Notes under the pieces: model-generated
Databases searched by the model: none
What the model was told of the DNA's origin: nothing
What the model saw: the letters and a program-made list of their open reading frames with translations, nothing else
In this document: positions 8,041 through 48,481 of the stretch, one piece after another
Position numbering within the stretch: position 1 is the stretch's first letter
Layout of the letters: every line of letters begins with the position of its first letter
Position numbers and translations under genes: made by a program
Assembly: GCA_951406725.2 (NCBI GenBank)
Contig: OX597824.1
Coordinates: forward strand, 85,808,001 to 85,872,000
Length of the DNA: 64,000 nucleotides
From: Octopus vulgaris
Lineage: Eukaryota
Direction of reading: 5' to 3'

Positions 8041-9240
8041 ACAGATTAAGATTATTTTTTATCGGTTGAAATTGAGTTTGTTACTGTTGTGATTGATTTG
8101 TTTCGATTGAAATAGATTTGTAAACAATAATATGATAAACGATAGTTGATACACAGTAGGATAGAATGTCGGCGTCGTAATTAGTTTGTAAAGATTGGTT
8201 CTTCGTTGATTACCATTATGTAAAGCAAAAAGAGCAGTGATTGAAGTTGTAAAGAAAATATTTATGCTTACCGTTACATTATACAATACCTTGCCTCGAC
8301 GGGCAGGTGATAAAATCCTAGAGCATGGGAAGTAAAAACAAGTTAATTTCGATCTGCATGTTCTTATTGTAGTAGTAGACCATAGACAGAGATATGGTAA
8401 TGTGCAGGGGACAAACAAAGACAGACATATGTATTAAGTCGATTATATCGACCCCAGTGCGTAACTGGTACTTAATTTATCGACCCCGAAAGGATGAAAG
8501 GCAAAGTCGACCTCGGCGGAATTTGAACTCACAACGTAACGACAGACGAAACACGGCTACGCATTCCGCTCGGCGTGCTAACGTTTCTGCCAGCTCGCCG
8601 CCTAAATATACCACATATACCTGTCTCCAAAATGGATACAGTTATAGTCAATTATATCAACCTGTAGTATCTCACTATTATTTTATTTTTCGACCACAGA
8701 AAAATGAAAAGCAAAGTTGACCTCGGCGAGATTTGAACGTAGAACGTAAACGACCGTAATTAAATATCGCATCGTCTTAATGAATCTCGTCATCCACTGC
8801 CTGAATACCAGGATTGATTGGACGCAAATTTGCTTCTGCCCCGCCAGTAAGACACCAATAATAATTAAAATAGCTAGTCCACCCCTCCCAAAGTGAATTT
8901 AAAATAGAAAGAAAACATATACATGGCCATAAAGGCCTCAAATAATAGACTGGTCAACCGTTTGGCAGTTATCCCAACTGCCAAACGAGTTGAAAAAACG
9001 ACTTCAAAAGACTTTCATATCTACAGGATAATAAATGGTGGTATGCTCTCAAGCGGGCCATTAAATTCGAGTCTATTAGATATATATTTCTTTACTACCC
9101 ACAAGGGGCCAAACACAGAGGGGACAAACAAGGACAGACAAAGCGATTAAGTAGATTCCATCAATCCCAGTGCGTAACTGGTACTTAATTTATCGACCCT
9201 GAAAGGATGAAAGGCAAAGTCTAGATATAGCATATGATTA

Positions 9241-11963: not shown

Positions 11964-12076
11964 ACCAATAATAATTAAAATAGCTGTTAAGTGGAATTGA
12001 ACACACGGCCTTAGTAACTATAATTTTTACTTATAGAATTAGATTTCGTACGAGTTAAATAGCATTAAAAATGGAC

Positions 12077-12128
12077 GAAACTATTTTCAAATGGTACCTT
12101 TCCAAATCTGCATTGGCCTATATATAAA
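12077..12128 (+). promoter_or_regulatory. Promoter of paralogue A: octamer variant ATCTGCAT plus TATATAAA
   Basis: ATCTGCAT at 12106-12113 and TATATAAA at 12121-12128, 40 nt before the ATG at 12168. The block aligns with the B and C upstream sequences. Confidence 0.6.
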
Positions 12129-12167: not shown

Positions 12168-14361
12168 ATGGGATTATCACTGTCGTGTAACGCAAGCGCC
12201 CCACGTGACATTGGCTCTGAAGCTAGCCCAGGGCTTCTGCCTGTAACTGATCTAATCGGTAAACGTTATCCATTCACAAACCTTGTCTTCGAAGGATGCG
12301 GTGTTAAAGGCTATGCTTTTGTTGGAACTCTGAAGGTATTTTCCCCCAACATCTTTGGTATTTCTCTAAAAAAAAAAAAAAATTGTTATTAAGTTTATTG
12401 ATTTCGCTGGTCCTGATCCTGTCTAAAGGCATTTTCAGCTGTATTACAAACTGTATAAAAGAACTGTAAAATGAAACTGCGAGCTTTGGGGTGCCTCGTA
12501 AGCCATTCCCTTTCTCCATTACAAATAACTCATTTCATATTAATCATTCATTAAATGTACCCTAAATTTTGTGTTGTATGTACTTGTAATGTCCACTTTG
12601 TGTTTTCAGGCTATATGCCTATAATAAAGAGATATAAAGGTGTTTTCGGCCTTTATTGTAAGTTTTTAAAGAAATATTTTTCAATATAAAAATTAAATTT
12701 TGCAGTTCCATCTCTTCGTGTATCGTCTTAAGTTTCTTCCTTTCACAATCCAACAGGTCCTCGAAAAAGTCGGTATTCTCTATAATATTAAGCGATTCGC
12801 AGGAATGGGTAGCGGTGCTATCGTAGCTTGCCTCTTGGCTATTGGTTATGATGCAAATTCTGTGCAGTCTCTACTTGATATGCACCTGCAAAGCTTGACT
12901 GTCGGTAAGCTTTTTTTTCTTCTTTCCTTTTCAGTTGACGAATTACATTTCGTTAATCTCATTCACCGTTGATTAGAAATTTTACTGTTCGGAATGTACG
13001 AAATTTAGACCTTCTTGACTAACTTACTAACGGGCTCCGAAGTCTACAAATCAAGTTTCTGATTGCTATGAATGAACTGTGTATCGTACACCGTGGATAA
13101 TTGACTGAAAATGATGATTGTGTATATTCTAGGACTGAATATTTCGTATCGAATTTCCAGCCTTCTAATTTCCATTTCAGATCTTCAATATACCCCCAAT
13201 GTTAGCCACGAAGAGGCGCTTGGGTGGAAAGACGGCCGTAGATTTCATGATTGGTTAGGAGAAATTTTGACACATAGGTTTCAAGACGCTGACATTTCCT
13301 TTCAGCAGGTGAGAGCATGGTTTTTAATCTGGCGCAAGGTTGTTTTTCACCCCTCACCGCATTCTCTCTTACCGTGGTGAGTCTGCTGTGAAGATTTTTT
13401 TCCGTTTTTAAAATGGAACTCTTTTGATTCCAATTAATTTTCTTTTCATTATTTCAGTTATACGACAAAATTGGTCATGAGCTGTGTATTCCGGTCATGA
13501 ATTTAAATCAAAATAAAATGGAATATTTCCACCCGAAGACTACTCCCGACTTTGTCATCCGACGGGCAGTTTCCTTAGCCATGTCTATCCCGGGTAATTT
13601 TTTTCTTTTAATTTGTTTCGGTCATTAGACAGCGGTAGTGGTAGGGCACCGCCTTGAATTTTTAGTCGAATAAGCTTACTCAGGTGCTGATTCTGTTAGT
13701 CTCTGTTATCGAATCGCTAAATTATGGGACGTAAATGCACAACGCCGGTTGTAAAGTGGTGAAAACACACACCATACACACGACGGTGGCCTTTTTTCAG
13801 CTCTTTCAAATCTTCGCTAGGATTTTGTCCCATTTGGTAATGTTCCTTTTGCAGCAGTTGAACTGTTAAGTGATTTACTAATTATATTTAATGCAATTTT
13901 CGGTTAAAATTGGTTCTCACTTGTATTGATTGAAGGCGCGTAGTATAATGGTTAGGGTAATCGGTTCACGATTGTAAGGCCGCGAGTTAGATTCCTAGTT
14001 GCGAGTTGTGTCCTTGAGAAAAATACTTTATTTCACGTAGCCCCAATCCACTCAGCTGGCAAAAAGGAAGTTGTACCTGTTATGCAAAGGACTAGTATTG
14101 TCCCACTATTGTGCTGAATCTCCCCGAGAACTGCGTTAATAGTATTCATGTTTGTGGAGTACTCGGCCACATGCGCATTCATTTCACGAGCAAGCTGTTC
14201 CTTTGATCGGATCAACTGAAGCTTTCGTCGTTGTAACCGTGTGCCAGTTTTGTATTGAATAGATTTTTCCTAGCGAATTCGCCTGCCTCAACTTCACTTG
14301 CTTCCAGGAAAATCTCTTGGTTGAATTCGCGTAATTTTTTCTTATCTTTTAAATGATTAAA

Positions 14362-14393
<32 letters not shown>

Positions 14394-17300
14394 ACATCTG
14401 AATTCTTATTTTGTGACTTTCGATTAATTCTATTTTCTCTACAATTTAAGCTAGTTCTGCATAGCTTCCAACTTAATTTCTCGCTGATTTAGTTGTAAAT
14501 GTACTTTCCCCCGTTGTACTTCAGTGAAATTTTTTTTTTTTTTTTTTTTTAATTTTAACAGAAAATTTTTAGTTCACAAAATATTGTAACCTGACTAATA
14601 TTTAGTTGTCAAGACTAATTGGCTAAATTATTCGAACTCGACCCGTTATTCTTTTAATATAGGTATATACCGTCCCCGCAAATTAAGTCTGGGTGAGTCC
14701 TCCGGAGATTTCTACATGGATGGTGGGATTATCTGCAACTATCCAATTCACTGCTTTGATGGTATGTGCAGCAACTTTTTTTTTTTTTTTTTTTTCTAGA
14801 AAAAAAAAATTGTCGCAGATCTCATGAGCTTTGAAATTCTTTTGTAGGATGGTGGCTATCGATGGAGCCCGGTGACCGCTTTCTTCGCAAATGTCAACCG
14901 TCTGTTAACTTGAGTTCTTTGGAGCTTGACTGTTTCTTTGGATTTAACCACATGAGTCTTGGCATTATGACGGTAAAGTGATTTTTTTTTTCTTCATAAA
15001 TGTTAATCATTTTAATGTATTTCGTTGGTTAAATCTACAAGTTGAAAGTTTTTTTAATCCTATTTGCTCCTTAAATGTTTGATTAAAACTTTTTCATAAG
15101 TGCCTGTAGTCTCTTAAATTTCAATAGCATCCGTCAAATCTGTTTGATGCAACTTTTTTTTTTTTCCAGTTTGACGATTATCACAACGATGAGATATACG
15201 ATATAATGAAACGGCGACTTGACCAAACCGGAGGCGTTGTCCCTATGCCAGCAACCGAACTTAGCATGTAAGTATTTTCTTTCTCACTGACTTTTCAATA
15301 ACGTTCTAAATCTGTATTAAAATGATCTCGAGGTCATCGGTGGCAATATTTAGTGTAATGCACTTTTCTGAATTTATTTTTATTCTAAGGAAATGGAAAG
15401 AGGCCAGAGAAAAGCTGCAACAGATGCAACTAATGTGTACGGGCTTTGAAGAAGCCTATGAAAAACTAAGACATGTGAGTGTCCTCCTCCCGCTTCTAAA
15501 TTAGATCTTAAATTCAAGATTAAGTTTTTGTCTAGCCCAGTGCAACCCTGGTGAATTAGAGCTATGATAAAAGGCTTACATAATTATTCATTTTTATGTA
15601 TCTTGGATATGCATGCTTCTCTCTAATGAAATAGTGGGATTTAATAAGAATTTGACCCTTTTCTCTATCAGTATTCTTAAACTTGATAAAAGGCGGCGGG
15701 TTGGAAGAATAATTAGAACGTAATGACGGGCAAAATCCAAAGCATTTTGCTCAGCGTGGTGAGTTCAAAGGATCGACTTGCCTTTTTTCATCTTTCATCT
15801 TTTTAGGTTCAAGTACCAGTTGAGCACTGGGGTCGATGTAATCGACTTAGCCCCGCCCCTTAAACTGCTGGTCATATGCCAAAGTTTGAAACATATTTTA
15901 GACTCGATAGCTTTTACCTTTTTAATACTTGGTTATGTAACTTTTCAGATTTTGGAGACACTTAAGGGAACTGACAACTTAGTATCCATAGTTAACTTGG
16001 TAGGAGAAGTGACCAAAGGCGTGAGTAAATTATTTTTCGTATGTAATCCATACCATTATAATCCATACCATTATATACGTAAACGATTAGTCTGCAATCA
16101 TAAGGATTTTTTGTTTCAAATGCATTTATGTAGCTTTCATTTCTTTTTTCCTAGAATAATTTCAGTACGGCTGAAATCAATGTATTATTTGGAGTGGGTA
16201 ACAACGCAAGAGAATGTTACGAATTGCTTCGAGCATATGCCAACAGTGATGATAGGGTAGGTTGTCAAGCTTGAATTTATTTTGCCTCTAAATAATTGTC
16301 TGCAAGATAGATTAACCTAGCATTTTAAACTTTTACAAACCGGCCAGAGCCAGCTTAACGTGTCGTACAATGTTTTCTTTTTTAAAAAATAAGTCATATT
16401 ACCGAAATCTAAAAACTGAGATGATGCATGATTAGTTTGAAACCACGTGAATGATATTTGATTGAGTAATCCGAATGCTAAAAGGTGATCTTCCTATATT
16501 GTCTTTTAGATGCCAGCTTTCAAGGTGGTGTCTTTTGTCGAGAGAAGACACTGGCAGTCTTTCTACGACTACAGCCAGATAACACCAAAGTTTGCAGTGA
16601 ATAATTTGTCTTCATTTTGGGGAGCGGTTAATAGTGTATCGAACGAAAAGAACAAAGCAGTTACGGTAAGTGCAGCTTTTTCTATATTTGTTTTTATATC
16701 AATTTTCCAAGTAATTAAGAATTGTTAAAGACATCGAATTTAAGTACTTTTCGTTTCCTGAATTTTTGTTTTTAATTATATTGTCATTTTGTGTTGATTT
16801 TTAAATTTAATTTTGTGTATTTATCATTCGTAAGTCTGACACCAAATCAGATTGTAGTGTCCCCTCTATGTTCGCCCCTTGTGGGTAATAAAAAATCTAA
16901 ACAGAGCTAGGACCACTAGCGGTGTCGAATGAGGACGGCACTTTGGGGTCTGTAAGCAATGTGCTGCTTGTGGGATCCGGGGGTGGTAAATGGATGGGCT
17001 GCCCCGGGCGGCACATATTCTAGCTACGCTAGTTGGCTAAGGCATTATCTTCAGGTACCTGGTTTCAAAATAATTAAAATCCACATTATTTTGCCAGATT
17101 TGATATAATTTAAACGAGGGCCACCTTAAATCTTAACTTGGGTTGCCCCTCACCGGTATTGTCATAACGAACTGGCAGAAACGTTAGCACGCCGGACGAA
17201 ATGCTTAGCAGTATTTCGTCTGCCGCTACGTTCTGAGTTCAAATTCCGCCGAGGTCGACTTTGCCTTTCATCCTTTCGGGGTCGGTTAAAGAAGTACCAG

Positions 17301-17933
17301 TTACACACTGGGGTCGATATAATCGACTTGATCTGTTTATCTGTCCTCTCTCTCTGTGTTTAGCCCCTTGTGGGTAGTAAAGAAATAGGTATTGTAATGA
17401 GTTGTGCCGAACTACGTCAGTAACAAATGTCAGCACGGAATTTTGTCAGTGAACTGGTCGCAGTCTCTAAGCGACGAAAATATTTTGACAAATTAAATTT
17501 AAATGAAGTGAATCTAACGGATTTTGTTTCTTAAATGGCTTATAAACACCTTCCACACTGCAATTATTTTAAATTATATAAATTCACAATTTGACGACAG
17601 TTTAGAAACTTTCAAGTTTTACTTTTGATATCTAACCTCCAGAAAACCGATTTGTTCCGCACTGTTGGCATCTACACTGGTCACGTTACCAATAATGATG
17701 ATAGCCTGCATGAAGCCGACGCAGCCTACCTGTATCAGGTGAGTTTATATATTTCTATTCTAAGACCGCCATTCTCACCAAGAATGTCTTGTGTAATTTC
17801 AACTTTATTATTTTTTTTTCTTTAGCATGGTTGGAACTGCGCTGTGGCATTCTTGCGAGATATCACCCAGATGTCCATGCCTTCCACGTCAGGAGTGAAA
17901 AGCCTGCTATCTAGTAGTTCAGATACTTCCTGA
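12168..17933 (+). CDS. Patatin-like (ExoU/VipD-type) pseudo-phospholipase paralogue A, 13 exons, 506 aa
   Basis: GT-AG exons 12168-12335, 12757-12904, 13181-13308, 13458-13593, 14663-14761, 14848-14972, 15170-15267, 15390-15474, 15949-16020, 16155-16256, 16510-16665, 17643-17738 and 17826-17933 join in frame (1521 nt). Motifs: NLVFEGCGVKG, FAGMGSGA, AMSIPG, YMDGGIICNYPIHCFDGWWLSM, RTVGIYTG. AATAAA at 18086-18091. Confidence 0.9.
16800..16897 (+). mobile_element. Very short 3' tip of the Tx1/L1 LINE in intron 11 of paralogue A
   Basis: tctgacaccaaatcagattgtagtgtcccctctatgttcgccccttgtgggtaataaaaaatc is nearly identical to 11898-11962. Confidence 0.75.
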
Positions 17934-22373: not shown

Positions 22374-22925
22374 TGTAGTGACGCTATACAGCGGCGCGCG
22401 CGCGCACCGTCCATTCCTGTTTCGCGCGTGCGGGTTGGTACTTTCACCACCGGAAGTAGGAATTTGCTGACGTGGCGTTTGGCTTGTATGGCGAAGGGAA
22501 GGTGAACCTTAAAAGGGGTCCGGAGTGATAGTAGCAGCAGGCAGTGACTTGAGACATGGCTATCGAAGGTACAACACGTATATTCTCTCTGTCCAGCTTT
22601 GATAGCAGTCGGCCGAAGGTTTTTACCAAATTGTTGCGGACAACATCATCTTCCTTTCTCCGGACGCCATCTTTGACAAGTGTCGTTTTGCATTTGAACA
22701 CTTTCTTATTTTACAGCGATAAGGTTCAGCTGAGACATATCAATACCAAAGGGATGCCAGATACACCAATTATCTGTTACCACATAAGAGAATAAAGTAT
22801 ATCTATTTTTTACGTCTGCGTTTTGTGTTTCTTTGACTGGTAGAATCTGGATTATCAAAGCAACGGAAAGTGATTGCTTCTCGCACCCGCAAAAGGTCCA
22901 GAGAAGATATTCACATTTCCTTACA
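22374..22925 (+). mobile_element. Solo LTR (Gypsy-like)
   Basis: TGTA...TACA termini with a 4-bp TSD CTCT on both sides. CpG-rich U3, TTAAAAG at about 22509 and AATAAA at about 22790. Confidence 0.7.
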
Positions 22926-23794: not shown

Positions 23795-24206
23795 GAGTCA
23801 GGCAATTTCATCTCTGGCCCTGGATTGGTGAATTACTTCATCTTCCACCTGAAAAGGAAAATAGGGCTGGAGAGAAAATGCCTGACTGAGAAAGTGTTTG
23901 AAAATCGATGGAAGAGTGAAGCACGGATGTTGCGTGTGGATGGAACCGCATGAATGCAAAACAGGACGAAACCCAGGTATCAGTGGCGAGGCGGGGGGGC
24001 TCCGAGCTAAACCCGCCCCCCACTCCATCCATAATGTCTTCCGGTTTGTCTTAGCATTTGATTTCTCCGATTTCATTATATGTTTGTAATTATGTGTAAA
24101 TTTCCAATTTCATTCTTTGTGTAAAATCATTCTTGAATCTGACCCCAAATCAGGTTGTATTGTCCCCTTTGTGGGTAATAAAACAAAAAAAAAAAAAAAA
24201 AAAAAA
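23795..24206 (+). mobile_element. 5'-truncated 3' end of the same Tx1/L1 LINE family with poly(A)
   Basis: High similarity to 11560-11955 (gagtcaggcaatttcatc...ctgaccccaaatcag...tgtgggtaataaaa), followed by an A-tail. Confidence 0.88.
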
Positions 24207-26134: not shown

Positions 26135-29100
26135 TCAATCTTCAAGGTCCGTGGTTTTCGATTCAGTTGTCTGTTCCGTTGTTGTTTCGAGCTCTTGGTC
26201 TGGTTCATCTGGCGGTGCCTGGGTACTGATAGATACCATTTCTTCTGGTGTTATAATCGATAGGGCGCCGAATTGTCGCAAGAAGGCCACTGTGCAGTTC
26301 CAGCCATGCTACAAATTAGAAAGTTGCAGTTATAGAAGACAAAGAATTTGACGGAGAAACGAGTCAAAGAAATCGAGGACTTACTTGAAATAAATAGATT
26401 TCGTCGGCTTCATCCAGGTCAATATCATTATTGGTGATATGACCAGTGTAAATACCAACAGTACGGGTCAAGTCGGCTTCCTGGAAGATAAACAGGAGGA
26501 GTAAGTTCAACCATCTTATATATGCTGATGTTGTTACGTCAACTATATACAACGATACTTACCGAAGTCAGTTTATTGGTTTCATGGATAGCGTTATTAA
26601 TTGTCCCCCAGAATGAGGATAAATTGGTTATATTCGACCTTGCTGACAATTTACTATAGTTGTAAAAATTGCGAGAGGTTCTTTTCTCAATAAAACTTAT
26701 AATTTCAGTAACTGGAAGCTGAAAGAAATAAGAGTGAAAAGTTTACCAAAAAAATCCAATACAAGTTTAGGTATATCTAAGGCCAACCAACTCACCATCT
26801 CCTTGGCATCAAAATGCTTTTGGAAAAAAGCAAGGCACTCATTTTCATTATTTTCAACTCCAAATAACGACCGAATTTCTATCGCAGAGAAAGATTCCTA
26901 TAAACAGAAAAGTGACCAAACCCATTTTCAAATGTCCGTGTATCAAAGTGAACGATAAATACGATTTAGAAGAATTTAGTTTCAACGCTTACTTGGTTGG
27001 TTATCTCCTTTGTCAAGTCAGAAACCGATGCCAAATTGTTGCAGTCTTTGATTTTCTCCAAAACCTGTTTATGGACAGGAATTCAGTTATATTTAAAACC
27101 ATTTGCATCATCAGGATTAAGCTAACTTTATTATAGCCACAAGGGCTCAAAAGGATTAAGCTCAATAGACAGATTTAAATTTGAAAATTTGTAACTTACC
27201 CCACAAAGCTTTGTCATGGCCTCTGGAAACTCCTCAAATAGCATTTTCATCTGCTTAATATTTTGACAGACCTCTTTGTATTTCCTTTAAAAGAAATACA
27301 ATTTAGTTGAAACTAAATGCCATCAGTTATAAAAGTTAAGTTCGTATTTAAATAAAGATTAAATTATCTGAAGTTATAGTCTACGCCCACTCCGTAGAAT
27401 TGGTTTACTACTCAGCTTGCCATACAGCATATGTACTCGTAAAATACTTACTTGCCAAGGTCGCTTTCGGGTATGGCGATAGCAGCTTCAGTAAGATCCA
27501 GGCGTTCCTTCATTGTTTTATATGTCTTAGCGGTGTGGTAATCGTCGAACTGGATTTAAACGAGAATACAAATTTAATGCGCTGAGAAACATGAAGTCAA
27601 AATTCAAATTTTTTTTGAACGATAGGCTTTAGTGTGAACAATTTCGTAGTTCTTGGAAATTCTTACAGAAACTACACAGTAACTTACGTTATTCCATTTT
27701 TGTAAATTATTCCTGTTTACTGGTATTCGTTAATAAACAAGGATAGCTCGTGATTAACTGGGACATCTTTATAAACCAGGATACAAAACTGAACGCAGTG
27801 GACTGCAGTACTGAAACGAATATAAAAGTGGGGAAACAAACTTACCATGATAAATCCGAGGCTTTGGGAATTGACGCCAGAGAAACGTTCTCGATGCAGC
27901 GTTCTAATATCAGGAGTTGGACATTTCTGAAGAAATGAGTTATAGGATTCCATCGATAGCCACCAACCATCGAAGCAATGAATGGGGTAGTTGCAAAGTA
28001 TCCCACCATCCAGGTAGTAGCTTTCGGGGGAATCAGCGACACTAAATTTCACAGGCTGGGACAAACCTATTAATAAATTTATGAGTGATAAGTATTCAAA
28101 AACGGGTTTCCAACGGTCATGGGAAGAACAGAAACGATTTTATGGAAATTAAGAGTCAAGCTAGGTTTTCAAAATATAGAATTGGATTCGAAGACAAAAT
28201 GAAGCAAAATAGTTAGGGCAAGAGGATAAAAAAATTTTCTAAGTGGGCAAATTTACAAATTATCAGGTAATATAGGCTAAAAGCTACATTGAGTTGGTCA
28301 AACGTCTAACTTAAAAACATTAATTTTTAAATGTTGGAACAAGACAGCAAACCATTAGGTTACCGATGAGGAAAATTGAACTGTAGATTGCATAATTACC
28401 GGGAACAGAGATGGTCATAAGGACTGCAAGACGAACAACGACATCAGGTGTTGTTTTGGGGTGGAAATATTCTTCCTTCATTCGGTTTACGTTCACAACA
28501 ACAATACACAATTCCTTGCCAGTCTTTTTGTAAAGCTGAAAGTATGAACAGCAATTAGTGTTAGAATTGTTCTCCCAGTACATATTCTTTGTAATAAAGA
28601 CATGCATTGTGTACTTACCTCTTGAAATGTTATGTCAGCGTTTCCACACTTTTGCGTTAGAACATTGCCGAACCAGTCAAAGAATTTTTGGCCAGAATTC
28701 CAACCGAATTTCTCGAACACCTCATCTTGGGTAACCTCATTAGTGCATTGGTTGTCTGAAAAGGGTAAAAAAATTTGTTCTAGATTAAGCTTAGTTGCCA
28801 CACAGGGATTTAGTTTTTTTTGCCGTGACTTCCGAATGCCAATAAATGTAGATCTAACAACAATTACCAAGAGTTAAACGAAAGATATCGAATCCTAAAA
28901 CTGCAATTTTAACGATGCTGGAATCAGTTATAAACACTAATCTCTCTATATATATATTATATGTATATATATAAAGCTGAAATTGTCTGTGTATGGCAGC
29001 CTTCAACTAACACTATATCCTCCGAGACCCTGCGGCAAAAGTTGACCAAAATTGAGAGTACGATAGAAGGCTTGCTCTTCCTTCCGTAGAAGGAAAAGAG

Positions 29101-30063
29101 AAAGAAAGAAAAAAAAAAAAAAAAAATCAAATCGGACCATGTTAACACCAAAAAGGTGCTTTTTTTCCTATGAAAATCCCTATTTTTTAACGATTTTTTG
29201 ACTGTGTCGTCATTTTTCGGTATATTGCAACCAGAAAAATGTTCACTTAAAAGAGAATAACAAGCTACAGGATGCAAAATTTTTACTTTTCAAAAATTAT
29301 AATTCTAAAGGGTCGAAACAAACCATAGCAACGCCGGGCGATACTGTTAGTTACGTATACAACAATACTATTTATTAATTGCAGTGGAGACACCTATTCG
29401 AGTAGGTAAGCAATAAGTTTTCTATGCAAAATTATCGAGGGAGAGAGTGACAGTATTAACGAATATCAAAAACTTTTCTTACCAATCAAAAGTTTTTCCA
29501 GATGTTCACTGACAGTCTGTTGTAGAGAATTGCAACTGAAACCAGCGGCCAAAAGACAGGCTACGATAGCACCAGTTCCAACACCACTAAATCGTTTGAT
29601 ATTAGAGAGAATGCCAGTTTTCTCGAGGACCTGCAAGATTTCCAGAAGTTTAAAAGAGAAGTGTTTATTTGAACAAAATGTGGCTAAAGAGTTTATGAGA
29701 ACGAGGCTTCCGATTGCGATTAATGTAAGAAGCTTCAAGTTTAAAAAGATATAAAACTACAGTCAGTAGATGAAAAAAAGATACGATAGCTTTAAACTGT
29801 ATATTTAAGTACTAATATATTTATCAGAGTAATTTAAAAGAAGACAGCGTTTGCGTATTTTAGAAATAGAACTATTGAATAAAAGAAAAGGGGGAAGATA
29901 AAAATAAACTTACTTTTAATGCTCCGGCATAAGCAAATGCTTTGGCACCACATCCTTCAAAGATTAGATTTTCAAATGGGTACTGCTTTTTCTTAAGGGA
30001 TGTTAGAGGCAGAAGTCCTGGGCTCGATTCAGATCCGAGGTTACGTGAACTTTGGTTTCCCAT
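26135..30063 (-). CDS. Patatin-like pseudo-phospholipase paralogue B, 12 exons, 524 aa
   Basis: Minus-strand exons 30063-29914, 29630-29483, 28755-28619, 28535-28400, 28066-27846, 27549-27452, 27284-27200, 27064-26993, 26897-26796, 26718-26563, 26480-26385 and 26308-26135 join in frame (1575 nt). Motifs: FENLIFEGCGAKA, FSGVGTGA, YLDGGILCNYPIHCFDGWWLSM. Acidic, Thr-rich C-terminal tail. Confidence 0.9.
28940..29351 (+). mobile_element. Helitron-like element in intron 2 of paralogue B
   Basis: Shares the 3' end caacgccgggcgatactgttagt with 59135-59156 and has a TA-rich 5' end. Confidence 0.55.
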
Positions 30064-30100: not shown

Positions 30101-30160
30101 ATATTTATAGCTTGTTTAAGACCTATGCAAATTTGAGTAGATTCCATTTGAAATTGTTCC
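30101..30160 (-). promoter_or_regulatory. Promoter of paralogue B: octamer ATTTGCAT plus TATAAAT
   Basis: ATGCAAAT at 30125-30132 (+) and TATAAAT on the minus strand at 30103-30109. ATG at 30063. Confidence 0.6.
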
Positions 30161-30454
30161 GCCCGTTTTTATTTTACGTGACCAGGTGAAGTGAAAATTA
30201 CCTCCGTGAATTGCAATTATATTACTGAAAGTTTTAAGTTCAGTTCCTGCCCGTTCTATTAAAGTAATGCGTAAAACAAGTAAAATTTGTGGATAAAATT
30301 TTTCATCTGCTTTCTTTTCTATTTTCCATCTGTTTTCTTATCACATGACATGTATTGGGTTACCGATTTATAGTAGCTAACCTTTCGACTTATTTTAGAA
30401 CATAATTGAGTTCATAAAATAGGATTTGACAACACCTCCATTTAGAGCACAATT

Positions 30455-32199: not shown

Positions 32200-34626
32200 T
32201 AACGCGTCGATGTCTCCCGTGGTCATGTCTGCAAAGCCGTCACCTCCAATGATCGCAGCCAACTGCAAAGCTTTCTGTACTGCGGAGTGTTGGATTTCGG
32301 CAGGTGTAAATCCTTTGTTGTCCTAAATAACCTCGGGCCGCAAATTTTTCCAGCTCGCGTTAATGGTGGCAGGTTTCATTTCTTGCAATGCCTTCTGGAT
32401 GTTTTGAAGGCAGTTGCAATTGTGTAATGCCGCCATTATGCCTTCAAATCAAAATTTTCGTCTTCGTCTTCTTGGGCGGCATCCACAGAAGCAACCAGGT
32501 CCGCCAGGACATTCCTCGTGTATAGGGCCTTGAACGTCCTGATAACCCCCTGATCCACTGGTTGAATAAGTGACGTAGTGTTGTAGGGCGGCAGGAACTC
32601 AATATGAATGCCTTCATGCGACAGATCAGTAGCGTGGCCACCAGCTTTATCCATAAGGAGAATCATTTCGAATGGCAAGCCCTTCTCTAATAGATACACC
32701 TTGACTTGCGGGATAAAACACTGGTGGAACCAGTCGGAGGTCAGCATCTTCGTTATCCACGCCTTTGGATTGTGCAGCCAATGTACAGGTAGCAGATTCT
32801 TGTTTTTGTTTTTTAAAGCCCTTGGGTTTTTAGACTTGTAAATAAGTCCTGGCTTTAAACAAAATCCCGCAGCAATGCCCCACATCACGAGGGTCACACG
32901 ATCTTTGTATGCTAAAGCCATAGGTTTTGCTTCCTCTTTGAACAGGAAAGTTCGGGACGGCATTCTTTTCCAAAACAAACCCGTCTCGTCCATATTAAAA
33001 ACATGTTCGAGCTTATATCCACCTTCGGAGATAATCTTCTTGAAAGTTTCATTCACTTATGTTTCAGCAGCGCTCGTGTCAGCAGAAGTGGCAGTGGAGG
33101 CGCAATGGCCCAGTGATTAGGGCAGCGGACTCGCGGTCGGAGGATCGCGGTTTCGATTCCCTGACCGGGCGTTGTGTGTGGTTATTGAGCGAAAACACCT
33201 AAAGCTCCACTCGACTCCGGCAGGGAGTGGTGGCGATCCCTGTTGTACTCTTTCGCTCAATTTTTTCTCACTCTTTCTTCCTGTTTCTTGTCCCCGACTT
33301 CCTACGCAACAGCTGAGCCTGGATGCGCATTCATCCATCCGTCGATGCTCTCGGTGTCGGGGGGGGGGTGTTTACCTACTCTCTCTTCTGCGGGTCTTAC
33401 GAATAGCAAAAGGACCACGTTTCGGACTTCTCCCATCTTGCGAGCTCTGGGACGAAGACCGTTCGCTCAACAGCAACTGCAGAAGCAGCCTCGCCATGCA
33501 GGAAAACGCTTTTTAGGCGGAAGCGTTTCTGAAACTTAACAAACCACCCTTTTCTAGCAGAAAAAGGACGTTTTTTAGATTGTGAATCACTGGACGTCCC
33601 TGGTTACGGATCTTCTACGTCGTCTTTGTCTTCTTCCTCTTCTTCGTGGTCGCCACTGTCGTCCTCAGGTTCCTTAGCGGCGAAAGTTTCGTACAGGCTC
33701 CTAGCCTTTGCTTAGATGATGTTCGTATCCAAGGCTATGTTCTTCTTTCGGCAGTCGGCTATCCATACGGCCAAAGCAGCTTCCATGCGGATGATAGTTT
33801 TATTACAAGCCGTAACCACTCTCTTTGCCGACTTCTTAAATGTGATGGCAGCCGTCTTCCTAATGTTAGCCTCGTCCTTCTTGATGTAGCGAACGGTGGA
33901 TTCGTTCACGCTAAAATGGCGGGCTACGGCAGAGAAAGTTCTCCCTTCCTTTAACACATCCAGAAGTTTCACCTTCTCAGCGATCGTCATTATTCTTCGT
34001 TTGCGTTTAGGCTCAGTACCAGCCTTGGAAGAAGCAGCACGCTTGGGAGCCATTGCAGGGGATTTTTAGGAGCCTGTACTTCTGAAAAACCTAAACCTCG
34101 TGTATAATACGCACCCTTTCTCTAACTTGAGTCAAGGAAGTCTATATAACGTCCTTGGTTTGTAAAAATGTATACGGTAACGTCCTTTATTATTATAGAC
34201 GCAAAGTTCAACGCAAAGAAACAAAAAAATCACACACAGCACAGCGTAAAGTAGTACAGTAAACCACTCGGTGAGAAAGCTTGAAGCGAAATGGCCGCGA
34301 GAGAGAGACAAGGAATGATGCTGCGGATCTGAGCATCAGTCAAGGAACCAATCACAGGCCAGAAAACAAAATAAAAAGCTGTGATTCGTCGTCTGTCTCC
34401 ATTGCACTAATCACAGCCTGTCTTAAGTTCAAATACCCCTATATATGCTTTTTTGCTATTTTACGCTTGTTTTGTTGTTCCTAGACCAGGAAATAATGTT
34501 TATTATTAATATTTTAATGGATTTAATGAAAAATTTTAGGTGTTCATATATATATATATATGTTTTAAAAATCTCCGAAGTTGTGAATCCGTGATAGTTG
34601 AACCGCGAATTAGCGAGGGATCACTG
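32200..34626 (-). mobile_element. Tigger/pogo-family DNA transposon with a disrupted transposase, containing a nested SINE
   Basis: ORF 34053-33712 encodes a CENP-B-like HTH (MTIAEKVKLL..VARHFSVNESTVRYI). ORF 33056-32436 encodes the DDE region (VFNMDETGLFWK, LLMDKAGGH, QPVDQGVI). Terminus TA|CAGTGATCCCTCG at 34626. SINE inserted at about 33094-33510. Confidence 0.88.
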
Positions 34627-41218: not shown

Positions 41219-44200
41219 CTATTGCTTCTGTAGTTGACGCAAGAAAGCCACTGTACTGTTCCATCCTTGCTGAAGAAAGAAATTTGCAATTACAGAAATA
41301 CTATAAGGATACGATATAGAATTGGTAGTAAACGATAAAATGTGAAGACCTTACCTGAAAAAGGTAAGTTTCGTCAGCTTCCTCAAGTTTGACATAATTA
41401 CCAGTTACATGACCAGTGTAAATACCAACGGTACGTTTCAAGTTGTCTTTCTGTAGGTGAGAAAAATAAGCCAAAGCTTTTAATGTCATTCGACTATTTA
41501 CAAAAGGAAAATAAAAGCGGTTAATAGGTACAGAAATGTTTGTGTGACAAAGAAATTCTTTGCCACCACAGGTACCCCAGGTTGTCCTGTGGAACCTACT
41601 AAAATACCAGGTCAACTGGTGCTTTACGAGTAGTTTCGGTAGAAGGAAACTGGTAGTACGTCAGCTGAATGTCCACCGTTTGACAACCGCTGACAGTTTA
41701 TTCACGTCCATATCGTCTAGCGATTTCGACAAGAGACAGAACAAGCCTTAAGACCTGGATTGACTTGTTCTACTAAATAAAGGCGGTACCCCAGCATGGC
41801 TGCAGTCTAACGACAAAGAAAATATAGGAGATATGCTTACCAATAATTTACCGTTTCCGTGCGCAACACCGTTGATTGCACTCCAGAATGAAAGTATATT
41901 CGTCACTTCAGTTCTTGATGTACGCTTGTTGGACTTGTAGAGAAAGCGACTGGTCTGATCAAGAAAATACAGCAGGTCAATAATTGCGATCTGTAAGAAG
42001 AACAAGACCTTTTAGCCTTCACATAGCCCCAATGAAACTAAGAATAAGAACAACCCTACTCACCATCTCTTTGGTACTGACATTCTTCAGTAGTTTCGAA
42101 CACTGGTCTTCGTTCTTTTCAATGCCAAACAATGCTTCGATGTCAGTTTGAGTGAAATTAGATTCCTGCAGAAATTAAGGTGGGTTAATTAATATATATA
42201 TATCGATAGACGTAGGAGTGGCTGTGTGGTAAGTAGCATGCTTACGAACCGCATGGTTCCGGGTTCAGTGCCACTGCGTGGCACCTTGGGCAAATGTCTT
42301 CTACTATAGCCTCGGGCCGACCAAAGCCTTGTGAGTGGATTTGGTAGACGGAAACTGAAAGAAACCTGTCGTATATATGTATATATATGTCTGCGCGTGT
42401 ATATGTCTGCGCGTGCGTGTATATGTTTGTGTGCGTTTGTCCCTCTAGTATTGCTTGACAATCGATGCTGGTGTGTTTACGTCCGTCACTTAGCGGTTCG
42501 GCAAAAGAGACCGATAGAATAAGTTCTGGGCTTACAAAAGAATAAGTACCGGAGTCGAGTTGCTCGATTAAAGGCGGTGCTCCAGCATGGCCGCAGTCAA
42601 ATGACTGAAACAAGTAAAAAGAGTAAGATATATATATATATTTCTTTACTACCCACAAGGGGCTAAACACAAGGGACAAACAAGGACAGACAAACGGATT
42701 AAGTCGATTACATCTAACCCAGTGCGTAACTGGTACTTAAATTATCGACCCGAAAGGATGAAAGGCAAAGTCGACCTCGGCGGAATTTGAACACAGAAAT
42801 ACCGCTAAGCATTTCGCCTTGCGTGCCAACGTTTCTGCCAGCTCGCCGCCCTTACAAGGTGGGTTAATATAGTTAAATGAAATTGTGCCAACGATATTTG
42901 TTATAAGCCACTGGTGAAGGCAAAACAAAGTTGTTTTTTTTTTTTTATATTTACCTTCCCGGTCAATGTCTTTACCAATTGAACAACCGACACTAGATTA
43001 CTATCACTTTTTTTGATTTTCAACAAAGCCTGAAAGTATAAATAAAGTGTTACTATACTGAAGCAGCCGTATGCTAAAAGAGATCGAATCGGCGATGGAA
43101 ATATCTTAAAAGAAATAAGTAGCCATTTTGGTACGAACAGCTTCAAGCTTTTTGGTAGCTTCTGGAAGGCTCTTGAACAAGTCTTTCAATTTATCCTCAT
43201 TTTCCACGTCAGCTTTGTATTTTCTGGAAGAAAAAAAAAAAGTGGGGAAAATATTGTTAATATTTGTGAAAAATGCTGTAAGAACAGAAATCAGTCTAGA
43301 AAGTAACCTCGTTATGTCTACACCACAAAATAAGAGGCAGATCTTTTCGGTTTGAACGGCAGTTTTTTCTAGTGGCGTCATGAAATTGTCACCCGTAATT
43401 ATGACCCTAGAATTGATCTATTGCATTTCAATCCGTTTTAGGGCATCTTTTCTTCTTCACAAATATAAATAAACCCAATCGGCTTCTTAAACGAGGGACA
43501 TTCATACGGCACAATGCTTTTTTACTCAATAGACGTCAGTGATTGGTTGAAATTGCAGAAATTTAAGAAAACAATCTACAAACTAGAATTTTCTCAATAA
43601 AGCCAAGAGATGTTTTATAAACACATTCTACCAGTATACGAAGTTAAAATTTTTTTAGTTATCTAGAAATGTTAAAAACTGCAATTCAAGCCGAAAAGAT
43701 CCGAAATATGTAACTAAGCCCCGGCTTATAAAAGTAGCAATAAAAAAAAAAAAAAAAAAAAAAAATTAAAAAAAATCGATGCGTATGAAACCTTAGCCGT
43801 GCTGCACATGGTTAATGAAATTAAGGATAAGCAAGATCTAAGATTTTTATTGCGAAGTCTCGGCTACTGAATTACTATTAGAATTCTTACCTGCCAAGTT
43901 TGGTTGTCGGTATAGGGACCACTGCTTTATTTTGATGTAGTCTCAGTTTCATTTCAATGTCCACTTCACCATGGCTGTGGGAATCGTCAAACTATTGTAG
44001 AAAAAACATTTTAACGACCAAGATTTCAATTGGGATCAGTTAAGTAGGTGATCAAATATTTTTTAAGATCGATGTAAAAATTACGCTTAATTTATTGTTT
44101 TACTTATAAACCTTACCAGCGCGAATCCAATGGTTTTCGAGTTGTAACTAGAGAAGCGTTCTCGAATCAGAGTCTTTAAGTCAGAAGTTGGTTGATATTT

Positions 44201-47200
44201 GTGAGGGACTTTTTTTCCGGGTTCCATTGAAAGCCACCAACCTACAAGGAGTTTTAAAACCAATTAAACAGTACTAAAGATTTAAATCCTAAAAAAAAAA
44301 AAAAAAAAAAAAAACTTACCATCAAAACAATGGATGGGGTAATTGCAGAGAATTCCACCATCTAAGTAATAGTTTTTGCGCGATTTTCCTGTGTTGAATT
44401 GAAAGGGTTGAAAAAGACCTGAAAGATACAAAGTGAGGAACCCCATTATTATGGTATGAATGTTCTGTTGCATAATGATCATGCAGAAGTAGGGGCCAAC
44501 ATCATAAGGGCTAGCACCTATGCATTTGGGGTTTAGGCAGGATAAATCAAGAACCAATAGTAGGAGCACTCCGTCGGTTGCGACGAGGAGGGTCCCAGCT
44601 GATACTATCAACGGAACAGCTTGCTCGTGATGTTAACGTGCAAGTGGCTGAGCACTCTACAGACACGTGTACCCTTAACGTAGCTCTCGAGGAGATTCAG
44701 CGTGACACAGAGTGTGACAAGGCTGGCCCTTTGAAATACAGGTACAAGAGAAACAGGAAGAAAGAGCGAGAGAAAGTTGTGGTGAAAGAGTACAGCAGGA
44801 TTCACCACCACCACCACCACCACCACCCCCTGCCGGAGCCTCGTGGAGCTTTAGGTGTTTTCGCTCAATAAACACCCACAATGCCCGGTCTGGGAATCGA
44901 AACCGCGATCCTCCGACCGCGAGTCCGCTGCCCTAACCACTGGGCCATAGCATCTCCACCAAGAACAAATATACAGTAGGACACCAGCTAGATTTAAGAC
45001 AAGACAATTAGAAATAAATTTTAATAGCTTAAATTTTTGATAAGGCTCAAGGCCGGGTTAGAAAAGTTTCTAGAAAAACAATCGCCGACAGTGATAGGAA
45101 AATTAAGTGAGTTTTACCATTAATAGATGCGTTTGTTTCAATTAATCGAGATTCAGTGTGAATGCTAGTTTGGTGATAGTTTCAAAATGTTGGCACGAGG
45201 CCAGCAGTTTCGGGAACGTCGACCCCAGTACTCAACCGGTTCTTATTTTATCGGCTTAGGATTAAAAAGGCAAAGTCAACATCAGATTCTGTACTTGGAA
45301 CGTAGTGGCAGTCGAAATGTCGCTAAGCATTCAACCCGGCGTACTAACGATTCTGCTAGCTCATCGTCTTTGTTCTGTGATGTTGACTACCAATCCACTT
45401 ACACAGAACTATTGTTTATAAGCTCAATCCGTTTCTTAAACGAGGGGCATTTTCATACGGCACTGAATGTTTTCACCTCAATAGACGTCATTGATTGGTT
45501 GAAAGTGCAGAAATTGAAGAAAAAACAAATATCTTACAAACTATAGAATTTTCTCAAAGCCAAGAGAAAAAGATGTTTTATAAACACATTCTATGTTAAA
45601 CAAGCAAACGAGAAACAATCGATAAAAGTTACCAGGAATACTTATGGACATCTCAACTGCCCGACGGATAGCGGTAGTCGGTGTGGTCTTGCAGTGAAAG
45701 TACTCTTCTCGCCTACGGTTTAGATTCAGAACTACGATGCACAACTCCTTGCCGGTTTTCTCATACAGCTGGAAAAAAAAAAGTGAAAGATTTAGAACAG
45801 ATTTAAGCTACTAAAGTGGCGACTAGGAAATATCAGTCAATGTCTATCAGGGTTGACGATACCAAGTACTCACCTCTCGGAACGTTATATCGGCGTCTTC
45901 GTATTTCTCCTTTAGAAGAGTCCCTAACCAATCAAGGAATTTATTGCCGGAATTCCAACCAAACTTATTAAGCAATTCATTCACTTGACCCTTTTTGTTG
46001 TAGTGGTTGGCTGAAAACAATACAAACGACAAGTTTCAAAAGTTATAGCTTTCTCTCCGCTACCGTCGACAAAATCTAAAAGTACGCTAGATCCTGCATT
46101 AAAGGCATTTTGGTGTGTAGAGAAAATAGTTGTAGGTTTCTACTATAAAGTAGAAAGGGATGCATTAGACCAGAGATATTAGATTTCTTAAAGCAAGCTG
46201 TTTAATGCATTCATTCAGGACCTGTAAAGCAACTCGCGTTAACAAAAATACTTCAGCAGTAAAGCAAAATATGGAAAGCAAGACATCGACCGTTTCGGAT
46301 CTTTTCGGTTTGAACGGCAGTTTTTTTTTTAATAATTTCCACGTAACTAAACACTTTTAAACTTAGTATACTGGTAGAATGTGTTTATAAAACCTCTTTT
46401 TCTCTTGGATTTATTGAGAAGATTCTATAGTTTGTAAGATTTGTTTTTTTTTCCTTCAATTTCTGCATTTTCAACCAATCAATGACGTCTATTGAGGTGA
46501 AAACATTCAGTGCCGTATGAAAATGTCCCTCGTTTAAGAAACAGATTGGGCTTACTTACATTTGTGAAGAAAAAAAGATACCCTTCCACCCACCCCTAAA
46601 ACAGATTGAAATGCAATAGATCGATACTAGGGTCATAATTATGGTTGACAATTTCATAGGACACCGCTAGTAAAAACTGCTGTTTAAACCGAAAAGATCC
46701 GTGTGTGTACGAAAGCTGTGCAAGCTATAAATTAACAATGGAAAGCCACGAGCACAGCCAAGGACATTTTTAGTAGCATTATAAGACTTCGAAACTTCAA
46801 GCAAAGCAATGCACCGTGGCTTATAATACTTATTGATTGCAAGTTACAGAAGTGGGTATTCTCTAGCCTCGTGGACCCCACAATCAGCTACCCAGGTGTG
46901 CAAGACAATATTGACACTGTCCGTTCCTGCGCAGAGAATTGTTCTGTTAACGACAAATAAGATTCAAACAATCCTGAGGAGTTTTTTTTTTTTTTATAAG
47001 TCTTAAGGTAAACTTTGTAAAGACAAAGGCTTTAGTATCTAAGAAAGACAGGAACCCCAGGACTTTCAAGCAGATGACACGAGAACACTGAAATGAAATG
47101 AAGCCAGTATGCTCCGTTAGATTTACAATGTAAGTGCGCATGAACGACATAGTCCAAATATGTCGAGAGAGAAAAAACTGTAGAAGTCATAAAAACCTCA

Positions 47201-47935
47201 GGAGTTCTTTTTTTTTTTTTTACCCTTGTTCGTATAGAAGTGACATGCTTACCAGTAAGTACATTTTCCAAGTGTTGTTTGAGCGAGTCTCGCAGAGCGT
47301 AGCAGTCGAAGCCTGCAGCCAAGAGACACGCTACAACAGCACCAGTGCCGACACCAGCAAATCGCTTGATTTTAGGAAGAGCATCAATCTTTTCGAGGAC
47401 CTGTCGAATTACAATAGTAACAAAATTAAGTTTGAATTGAAAGACAACGGAGATTAATCAAAGCAACAAATGTCGATTCGACATTTTAAAGATGGAAAAA
47501 AAAAATGGGGTTAATATCGACCATAAGTAAAATTACGACATTGAATGCGTTCGAAGAGCGTCATAATTGATATCGTTTGTGGTAAGTAGCTTGTTTACCA
47601 ACCACATGGTTCCGGGTTCAGTCCCACTGCGTGGCACCTTGGGCAAGTGTCTACTATTATAGCCTCGGGCCGATCAAAGCCTTGTGAGTGGATTTGGTAG
47701 ACGGAAACTGAAAGAAGCCCGTCGTATATATGTATGTGTGTTTGTGTCTGTCCCCCTAGCATTGCTTGACAACCGATGCTGGTGTGTTTACGTCCCCGTA
47801 ACTTAGCGGTTCGGCAAAAAAACGATAGAATAAGTACTGGGCTTACAAAAGAATAAGTCCCGGGGTCGAGTTGCTCGATTTAAGGTGGTGCTCCAGCATG
47901 GCCGCAGTCAAATGACTGAAACAAGTAAAAGAGTA

Positions 47936-47970
<35 letters not shown>

Positions 47971-48148
47971 AAAGCATTACCTTAATGGCTCCAACGTAAG
48001 CTAATGCTTTGGTCCCGCATCCTTCAAAAACGAGGTTTTCAATCGGATATTGTTCATTCATGAGATCTGAAAGAAGTAAAAGTCCTGGGTTTGATTCTGA
48101 ACCGGAATTATCCGTTGATTGCGAGTCTGTTGACTGTCCGCTGCCCAT
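41219..48148 (-). CDS. Patatin-like pseudo-phospholipase paralogue C, 13 exons, 490 aa
   Basis: Minus-strand exons 48148-47981, 47400-47253, 46010-45874, 45768-45633, 44418-44320, 44241-44117, 43991-43891, 43223-43139, 43029-42955, 42165-42064, 41990-41841, 41450-41355 and 41269-41219 join in frame (1473 nt). Motifs: IENLVFEGCGTKA, FAGVGTGA, YLDGGILCNYPIHCFDG. Intron phases match A. The exon 8 donor (GTTCGT) is weak. Confidence 0.88.
43339..43702 (+). mobile_element. ~400-bp MITE (TIR GGATCTTTTCGGTTTGAACGGCAG), intron 7 of C
   Basis: Inverted termini gatcttttcggtttgaacggcagtttt / aaaactgcaattcaagccgaaaagatcc. Other copies at 46297-46700, 56797-57203 and (partial) 45420-45593. Confidence 0.8.
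46297..46700 (-). mobile_element. Same MITE family in opposite orientation, intron 2 of C
   Basis: Same TIRs; the internal sequence is the reverse complement of 43339-43702. Confidence 0.82.
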
Positions 48149-48193: not shown

Positions 48194-48258
48194 TATTTTT
48201 ATCGTCTCTTTCTGAGACTTATGCAAATTTAGACAAACTACATTCAAAACAGTTTCGT
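48194..48258 (-). promoter_or_regulatory. Promoter of paralogue C: octamer ATTTGCAT plus GATAAAAA (TATA-like)
   Basis: ATGCAAAT at 48221-48228 (+) and GATAAAAATA on the minus strand at about 48194-48203. ATG at 48148. Confidence 0.55.
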
Positions 48259-48481
48259 GGGTTTTCTTTTTTTCTTTTTTTTTTTTTTTTTCAAAGTGTA
48301 AAATGATGTTTCATTGTCTTAAGCAACTATGTTCCCGAGTAATCGAATGTTCAATTCCCACTCGTACCTTTATAACAGTTTATAAATCTAGCTATTGAAA
48401 ATCTCAATTGATAAATTATATTTCAACTGCAATCAGCAAAAGTAATTTGTAACCGTTGTTTTCTTCCTTTCTCTCTCTGTT

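Follow-up and report, generated by a model that had tools for sequence, protein, structure and literature searches.

An inherited N-terminal myristoylation signal in three octopus patatin-like proteins with glycine in place of the catalytic serine

The window analysed here, a stretch of 64,000 nucleotides of intron-rich animal DNA from Octopus vulgaris, carries three intact spliced genes that we call A, B and C (Table 1). Exon-by-exon models built by hand have GT-AG at all junctions and no internal stops. The product of gene C is 100% identical to the O. vulgaris record P0004, and the products of genes A and B differ from the O. sinensis records P0011 and P0001 at 5 of 506 and 3 of 524 residues, respectively. 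The three genes are tandem paralogues with a mutual identity of 45-53%; a tblastn search of the 64-kb window returned neither a fourth paralogue nor a remnant of one, and Rfam gave no match in the window at gathering score. Pairwise dN/dS among the three lies at 0.25-0.31, values that are rough because dS, at about 1.4, is near saturation, and the reading frames are evidently under purifying selection. Intron positions and phases agree across the three genes except for one intron, present in A (14762-14847, +) and in C (44242-44319, -) and missing from B (region 27846-28066, -), which sits within the FDG-WWLS motif; its loss in B is the simplest reading of the difference. The protein encoded by B ends in an acidic tail of about 45 residues rich in Thr, Glu and Pro (26135-26260, -) that is conserved in O. 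bimaculoides P0002, C has no such tail, and the tail of A is shorter and Ser-rich.

Table 1 Features of the three patatin-like genes in the window (positions within the 64,000-nt stretch).
Feature	Gene	Position	Strand	Remarks
Gene	A	12168..17933	+	13 coding exons, 506 aa; Ser-less patatin with degenerate EF-hand
Gene	B	26135..30063	-	12 coding exons, 524 aa
Gene	C	41219..48148	-	13 coding exons, 490 aa
Upstream block	A	12072..12126	+	octamer-like ATCTGCAT (-62), TATA (-49/-47)
Upstream block	B	30103..30165	-	ATTTGCAT (-69), TATAAAT (-46)
Upstream block	C	48196..48262	-	ATTTGCAT (-80), TATA-like GATAAAAA (-55)
Putative myristoylation signal MGLSLS plus Cys7	A	12168..12188	+	Cys7 is a candidate palmitoylation site
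Putative myristoylation signal MGNQSSR	B	30043..30063	-	full motif match including K/R at position 7
Putative myristoylation signal MGSGQST	C	48128..48148	-	no second membrane signal; 0 K/R and 3 D/E in residues 1-20
GSEASPGLL	A	12213-12239	+	begins at residue 16
GSESSPGLL	B	30010..30036	-	begins at residue 10; end of flexible tail, start of folded domain
GSESNPGLL	C	48077-48103	-	begins at residue 16
Nucleophile elbow GMGSG	A	12802..12816	+	Gly74 replaces catalytic Ser
Nucleophile elbow GVGTG	B	29571..29585	-	Gly68 replaces catalytic Ser
Nucleophile elbow GVGTG	C	47341..47355	-	Gly74 replaces catalytic Ser
Degenerate EF-hand pair	A	15949-16256	+	
Degenerate EF-hand pair	B	26796..27064	-	exons 8-9
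Degenerate EF-hand pair	C	42064-43029	-	model still shows helix-loop-helix form

An exact 21-bp direct repeat (8855-8875 and 11965-11985, +; two matches, none expected) flanks about 3.1 kb containing a short interspersed repeat, a LINE-like reverse-transcriptase ORF (9256-10887, PF00078) and a second ORF (10960-11718). The repeat looks like the target-site duplication left by an element that inserted just outside the conserved promoter block, about 180 nt before the ATG of A. A second copy of the LINE 3' end, 81% identical, lies at 23795-24172 (+), with shorter 3' tails at 16823-16895 and 20361-20403. Between B and C we found the remnant of a Pogo/Tigger-like DNA transposon (32436-34053, -) with a CENP-B N-terminal ORF (33712-34053) and a DDE_1 ORF (32436-32993). 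Between A and B, a CpG-rich, promoter-like stretch at about 22380-22620, with a CpG observed/expected ratio of 1.2-1.5, is unique in the window and carries CCGGAAGT and TGACGTGG motifs.

When Pfam was run on single exons all patatin matches were sub-threshold, and for the complete proteins PF01734 lies above its curated cut-off of 27.7 bits in P0004 (88.6), P0001 (77.2) and P0011 (68.8), with an E-value of 7.9e-25 for C. The AlphaFold model of C (pLDDT 87.8) retrieved CapV, CapE, VipD and patatin in Foldseek with E about 1e-9; by fold the nearest solved relatives are CapV and CapE, whereas by sequence ExoU and VipD come closest, at phmmer E-values between 1e-7 and 1e-8. Scores of the octopus proteins against the NCBIfam models for VpdC, CBASS lipase and RssA were far under the respective cut-offs. 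The label 'NHL repeat-containing 2-like' on P0003 and P0004 is a misannotation, as Pfam at or above cut-off gives patatin only, and a ThiS-like match on exon 11 of B and on P0001 fell below cut-off and was rejected. The three octopus proteins share the fold and the motif order (Gly-rich box, elbow, DGG) of PF01734 phospholipases and differ from them in a Gly at the nucleophile position, a GCG box, an EF-hand-derived insertion and an N-terminal signal for N-myristoyltransferase (NMT).

Full-length relatives at about 31-37% identity come from a sponge, cnidarians, molluscs, annelids, a brachiopod, a bryozoan, echinoderms, hemichordates and amphioxus, and most of these animal relatives carry EF-hand annotations in records that are uncharacterised or called 'YqhO-like'. 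A, B and C are placed inside the animal clade of this patatin plus EF-hand family, with which they share full-length homology, the FDGWWLS motif, an N-terminal MGxxxS and the architecture (Atlas clusters 0.96-0.97). A bacterial-like group has the same architecture, its two named members belonging to Myxococcota and Actinomycetota; these proteins (P0172-P0196, about 490-530 aa) combine patatin, EF-hand and FDGWWLS motif, lack the NMT signal, and hint that the gene was transferred long ago between bacteria and eukaryotes, in one direction or the other. Within the main texts of the open-licence PMC and bioRxiv literature we found no paper on the family, PMC10329180 and PMC10164948 mentioning patatin once each in unrelated contexts.

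At the nucleophile elbow all three proteins have Gly where the catalytic Ser would be expected, and in the model of C this Gly lies between a strand (69-72) and a helix starting at Thr75. The Asp of the DGG motif is intact (Asp213 in A, Asp210 in B, Asp216 in C), and the Gly-rich oxyanion box GGGxK/R reads GCGxK in each, one Gly having changed to Cys with the Lys kept. The EF-hand pair lacks a canonical Ca-binding loop in all three proteins, and in the model of C it retains its paired form with short strands (345-347 and 392-394); Pfam EF-hand gave no match at E 0.05 in P0004, P0001 and P0011, in contrast to P0058 and P0009, in which it is present. To place these changes in the family we compared Ser-less (n=30) with Ser-containing (n=225) proteins of 450-950 aa. 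Typical members combine GxSxG with at least one canonical EF loop (148/225), neither of which is found in A, B or C, and a canonical loop occurs in none of the 30 Ser-less proteins. The DGG Asp is kept in 16/30 Ser-less versus 222/225 Ser-containing proteins and the GGG box in 4/30 versus 218/225, indicating that the remaining catalytic features decay across the clade. The replacing Gly is invariant (17/17 clade members), and the residue right after it is Thr or Ser in 28/30 Ser-less versus 23/225 Ser-containing proteins, with Thr alone accounting for 21/30 versus 1/225. This hydroxyl residue might cap the following helix, or it might represent a hydroxyl shifted by one residue.

The initial annotation had described the three proteins as catalytically dead, and the replacement of the nucleophile Ser by Gly in all of them makes this likely. 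Two observations keep the word 'dead' a prediction, namely the intact DGG Asp and the reported retention of acyl-hydrolase (lipase) activity by plant pPLAIIIs, which have the same Ser-to-Gly change to GxGxG in the esterase box, according to PMC7031755 and PMC4623698. An unlikely alternative is that A, B and C are myristoylated and not dead at all, working like pPLAIII as non-canonical acyl hydrolases or thioesterases, possibly with the Thr/Ser at +1 and the DGG Asp. The near-constant hydroxyl residue behind an invariant Gly fits such a proposal, as do the pPLAIII activity and the preserved Asp of the three octopus proteins; yet 14/30 Ser-less proteins have lost the Asp, among them the relative of A in Argonauta, which has NGG, and 26/30 have lost the GGG box. 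Moreover, Thr75 is the first residue of the post-elbow helix so that helix capping could explain its presence, and, the Ser-less proteins being related to each other, the counts stand for one or a few events. The pPLAIIIs form a separate patatin lineage, set apart by description, in which activity is reported and many members lose the Asp that A, B and C retain. The named hits of the homologue searches include no plants, and the GxGxG common to pPLAIIIs and the octopus proteins is probably convergent.

Whether A, B and C can carry myristate depends on the start codon. In-frame upstream codons open to the start are present at -30 in A (ATG, 12138), at -84 in B (ATG, 30145-30147) and at -99 and -78 in C (both TTG), and the initial annotation had considered them probably unused, a view that the upstream sequence, the Kozak contexts and the orthologue starts support and that the O. 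sinensis records contradict. A block of about 60 nt is common to the three genes and ends in an octamer-like element, AT(T/C)TGCAT, followed 46-55 nt before the MG ATG by a presumed TATA or TATA-like element, which is non-canonical in C. The pairwise local scores of the upstream regions were matched by 0, 1 and 0 of 1000 shuffles; a control with random windows, in which 4, 8 and 7 of 2000 draws equalled or exceeded the score, was discarded because the promoters themselves are among the draws. The block contains the -84 ATG of B, whose counterparts at -77 in A and -95 in C lie in a different frame and are closed. The -30 ATG of A lies between TATA and start and, given the TATA-to-TSS spacing of about 30 nt, falls roughly 10 nt upstream of the estimated TSS. 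The Kozak context of each MG start is strong, with A at -3 and G at +4, as compared with T or C at -3 for the upstream in-frame ATGs. The 120 nt preceding each start contain no splice-acceptor-like pattern and hence give no sign of a coding exon close by; a distant non-coding exon may exist. Farther upstream, all three genes have a GGAA(T/C)TGAAC element (11990-12126, +; 30103-30250, -; 48196-48370, -), which suggests common regulation.

Records from related species bear on the same question. Those that begin at MG are P0002, P0005, P0006 and P0012 from O. bimaculoides and Argonauta and P0003 and P0004 from O. vulgaris, and the O. sinensis records P0001 and P0011 begin 28 and 10 residues earlier, at the -84 and -30 ATGs. 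It is quite improbable, in our judgement, that A and B start mostly or partly at these upstream ATGs, which would make their products non-myristoylated and leave the MG start to C or to a minor isoform. Such a scenario would agree with the two O. sinensis records, with frames that are open to the main start in both genes and with predicted 5' UTRs of the MG starts that would be very short (about 15-25 nt); however, the extensions of A and B are mutually unrelated and C has none, the upstream ATG of B belongs to a stretch of non-coding sequence and its homologues in A and C are not in frame, the upstream ATGs stand in weaker contexts, the orthologous O. bimaculoides and Argonauta records start at MG, and the choice of the longest ORF adds extensions to other family records as well, an NMT-like motif being found at a later Met in 13/159 animal-like records. 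The MG ATG is thus likely the start codon used in all three genes.

Starting from this Met, the exon models of A, B and C bear out the previously noted starts MGLSLS, MGNQSS and MGSGQS with invariant Gly2 and Ser6, as well as the shared GSE(A/S)xPGLL that follows them. Residues 1-6 of all three fit the NMT motif, given for positions 2-6 as G[^DEFRWY]X[^DEKR][ACGST] in PMC9018777, where K/R at position 7 is preferred and not obligatory. Position 7 is Arg in B, Cys in A and Thr in C, K/R thus being found only in B and Cys7 only in A. The N-terminus of C is flexible in its model, with pLDDT <50 for residues 1-17 and 93 for residues 21-30, and on this model the PGLL end of the shared motif is the start of the folded domain rather than a component of the lipidation signal.

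Since A, B and C are paralogues, their signals are not three independent events, and the real test is a family-wide count. We collected 196 proteins and set apart 23 bacterial-like ones, of which two are from named bacteria, five grouped at 100 in a tree and the others were assigned by similarity. Because of incomplete N-termini, 14 animal-like and 3 bacterial-like proteins were excluded. Among the 159 animal-like records, 111 start with MG and 84 with MGxxx[S/T]. Dereplicating them at 70% identity leaves 102 records, 72 with MG and 58 with MGxxx[S/T], and the 72 MG starts have Ser at position 6 in 53 cases and Lys at position 7 in 27. By subtraction (72 MG, 5 with a later motif), 25-26 of the 102 start without MG and also lack an NMT-like motif further along, ahead of the domain. 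The bacterial-like proteins, by comparison, have MG in 1/13 and MGxxx[S/T] in 0/13, and to our knowledge bacteria lack NMT; at internal Met residues of family proteins the background is 67/2009 for MG and 8/2009 (0.4%) for MGxxx[S/T]. These counts indicate that the signal is real, family-wide and confined to the eukaryote-like members, and it is also present in Ser-containing enzymes from sponge to amphioxus. To judge from the sequences, the myristoylation motif of A, B and C is therefore genuine yet ordinary and inherited, and we consider it highly likely that the three proteins are myristoylated at their MG start. Of the proposal that the starts reflect selection for membrane tethering of this trio, the NMT signal itself holds up; its specificity does not, as the signal is inherited throughout the family and shared with Ser-containing enzymes.

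Within the Ser-less cephalopod-like clade (n=15, at most 64% identical, with the later MG used for P0015), Gly2 is kept in 14/15 and Ser6 in 10/15, and positions 4 and 8-12 vary freely; the exceptions include P0124, which lacks Gly2, and P0197, which has Val6. It is very improbable that the signal is a leftover of an enzymatic ancestor, no longer needed by proteins that would be soluble scaffolds: this would suit the missing second signal of C, the two exceptions and the Ser-less annelid-like records P0232, P0233 and P0238 without MG, but Gly2 and Ser6 have persisted next to freely varying positions and, in A, B and C, despite synonymous sites near saturation.

In PMC9018777, membrane binding by myristate alone is described as weak. 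The tail of C is net acidic, and its first 20 residues include neither a Cys nor a basic residue, so that stable tethering of C is doubtful, which limits the membrane tethering that the initial annotation had proposed for all three proteins. Cys7 of A, put forward in the same annotation as a possible second lipid site, is supported as a candidate by its presence in the Argonauta relative P0012. Among the more distant clade members, most carry 3-7 basic residues within positions 1-20. Taken together, A, B and C may differ in membrane affinity in a paralogue-specific manner.

A comparable arrangement of a myristoyl group plus a second signal is known from G-alpha o/i and plant CDPKs, and the octopus paralogues likewise have MGxxxS on an unstructured tail with, in some, Cys or basic residues; the Cys lies at positions 3-5 in G-alpha o/i and CDPK-type proteins and at position 7 in A. 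Recoverin combines myristoyl group and EF-hands in a Ca sensor, and a Ca-myristoyl switch of this type is unlikely in A, B and C because their EF-hands lack canonical ligands.

The Ser-less genes of Octopus and Argonauta form one clade together with several relatives, with support of 99-100 in three trees (all trees being quick SH-aLRT trees), and A, B and C each have relatives in O. bimaculoides or Argonauta. Outside the window there are also a fourth Ser-less paralogue, represented by P0003 and P0013, and a copy with the Ser, represented by P0058 and P0099, so that octopuses have at least four Ser-less paralogues alongside a Ser-containing one. A second Ser-less group surrounds a record from the annelid Paralvinella and has GxG[T/S]G in most members. 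Its relation to the cephalopod-like group depends on the tree: with motif columns and without an outgroup the two are joined, weakly, at 79; without motif and EF columns and with a bacterial outgroup they are apart, the cephalopod-like clade standing beside the active octopus copies at 95; and in another tree without motif columns they are again apart, with starred branches that force at least two changes and a sister group that is not fixed. An AU test did not reject a single Ser-less clade (p 0.161).

From these observations we derive a mechanism which, taken as a whole, we hold to be evenly balanced between right and wrong. Transcription would start downstream of the shared block of octamer-like and TATA elements and translation at the MG ATG, after which Met1 would be removed and Gly2 on the flexible tail myristoylated by NMT; we regard these first steps as strong. 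The myristate would then provide a weak and reversible membrane contact, tuned by a second signal that differs between paralogues: in A it could be palmitoylation of Cys7, in B it would be one Arg, C would have none, and clade members further away would use stretches of basic residues. The sequences themselves show that the clade has exchanged the catalytic Ser for Gly and lost the canonical Ca-binding loops, and that it has kept fold, reading frames and lipidation signal through these losses; A, B and C did not invent the signal but received it from the active ancestor and retained it. With neither nucleophile nor Ca-binding loops, a constitutive regulator or lipid binder is the most likely role, and A, B and C might be pseudo-lipases that act independently of Ca at the membrane. 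The most plausible route would be oligomerisation with the Ser-containing P0058, which they might position or restrain. This role and this route are the weakest steps of the mechanism.

A predicted complex of C with P0058 lends weak support to this route, with a score of 0.58 against 0.00 for the best of three controls, a contact overlap between runs of at least 48% and a partner pLDDT of at least 75. The mark used for such complexes was reached by 116/157 solved versus 2/215 mismatched microbial pairs, and on eukaryotes by 39/65 novel solved and 2/126 unrelated pairs; the range at or below 0.60 holds only 18 of the 157 solved microbial pairs but both mismatches. Because the two chains are paralogues and related patatins have been solved as oligomers, CapV and CapE as dimers and filaments, the score may reflect only a family surface for self-association or the likeness of the chains. 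The record of P0058 itself lacks an MG start, owing either to a truncated gene model or to a real loss, and its Argonauta counterpart P0099 has a longer N-terminus starting MGNIVKC. If the loss is real, a myristoylated partner would be more useful to P0058.

We also entertain a wider reading, distinctly unlikely in our estimate, in which EF-ligand-losing GxG[T/S]G forms arose twice, in cephalopods and in annelids, from an undescribed animal family of Ca-sensing, myristoylated patatin phospholipases whose close bacterial relatives lack the signal, to work either through the shifted hydroxyl or as membrane-anchored heteromers that regulate the active enzyme, with the octopus paralogues sorted to different membranes by their second signals.

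The main interest of the locus lies in a patatin plus EF-hand family that is apparently uncharacterised, and in the octopus branch of it that lacks the Ser and has degenerate EF-hands. Work on patatin-like lipases centred on vertebrates seems not to cover a myristoylated patatin plus EF-hand protein with a range from sponges to amphioxus plus bacteria. The Ser-less and Ser-containing paralogues of octopus offer a natural series for how GxGxG patatins function without the serine, and they also bear on the regulation of active sisters by pseudo-lipases. Should the changes in cephalopods and in annelids have occurred independently, the recurrent replacement of Ser by Gly followed by Thr/Ser would point to a selected structural or functional solution and not to decay.
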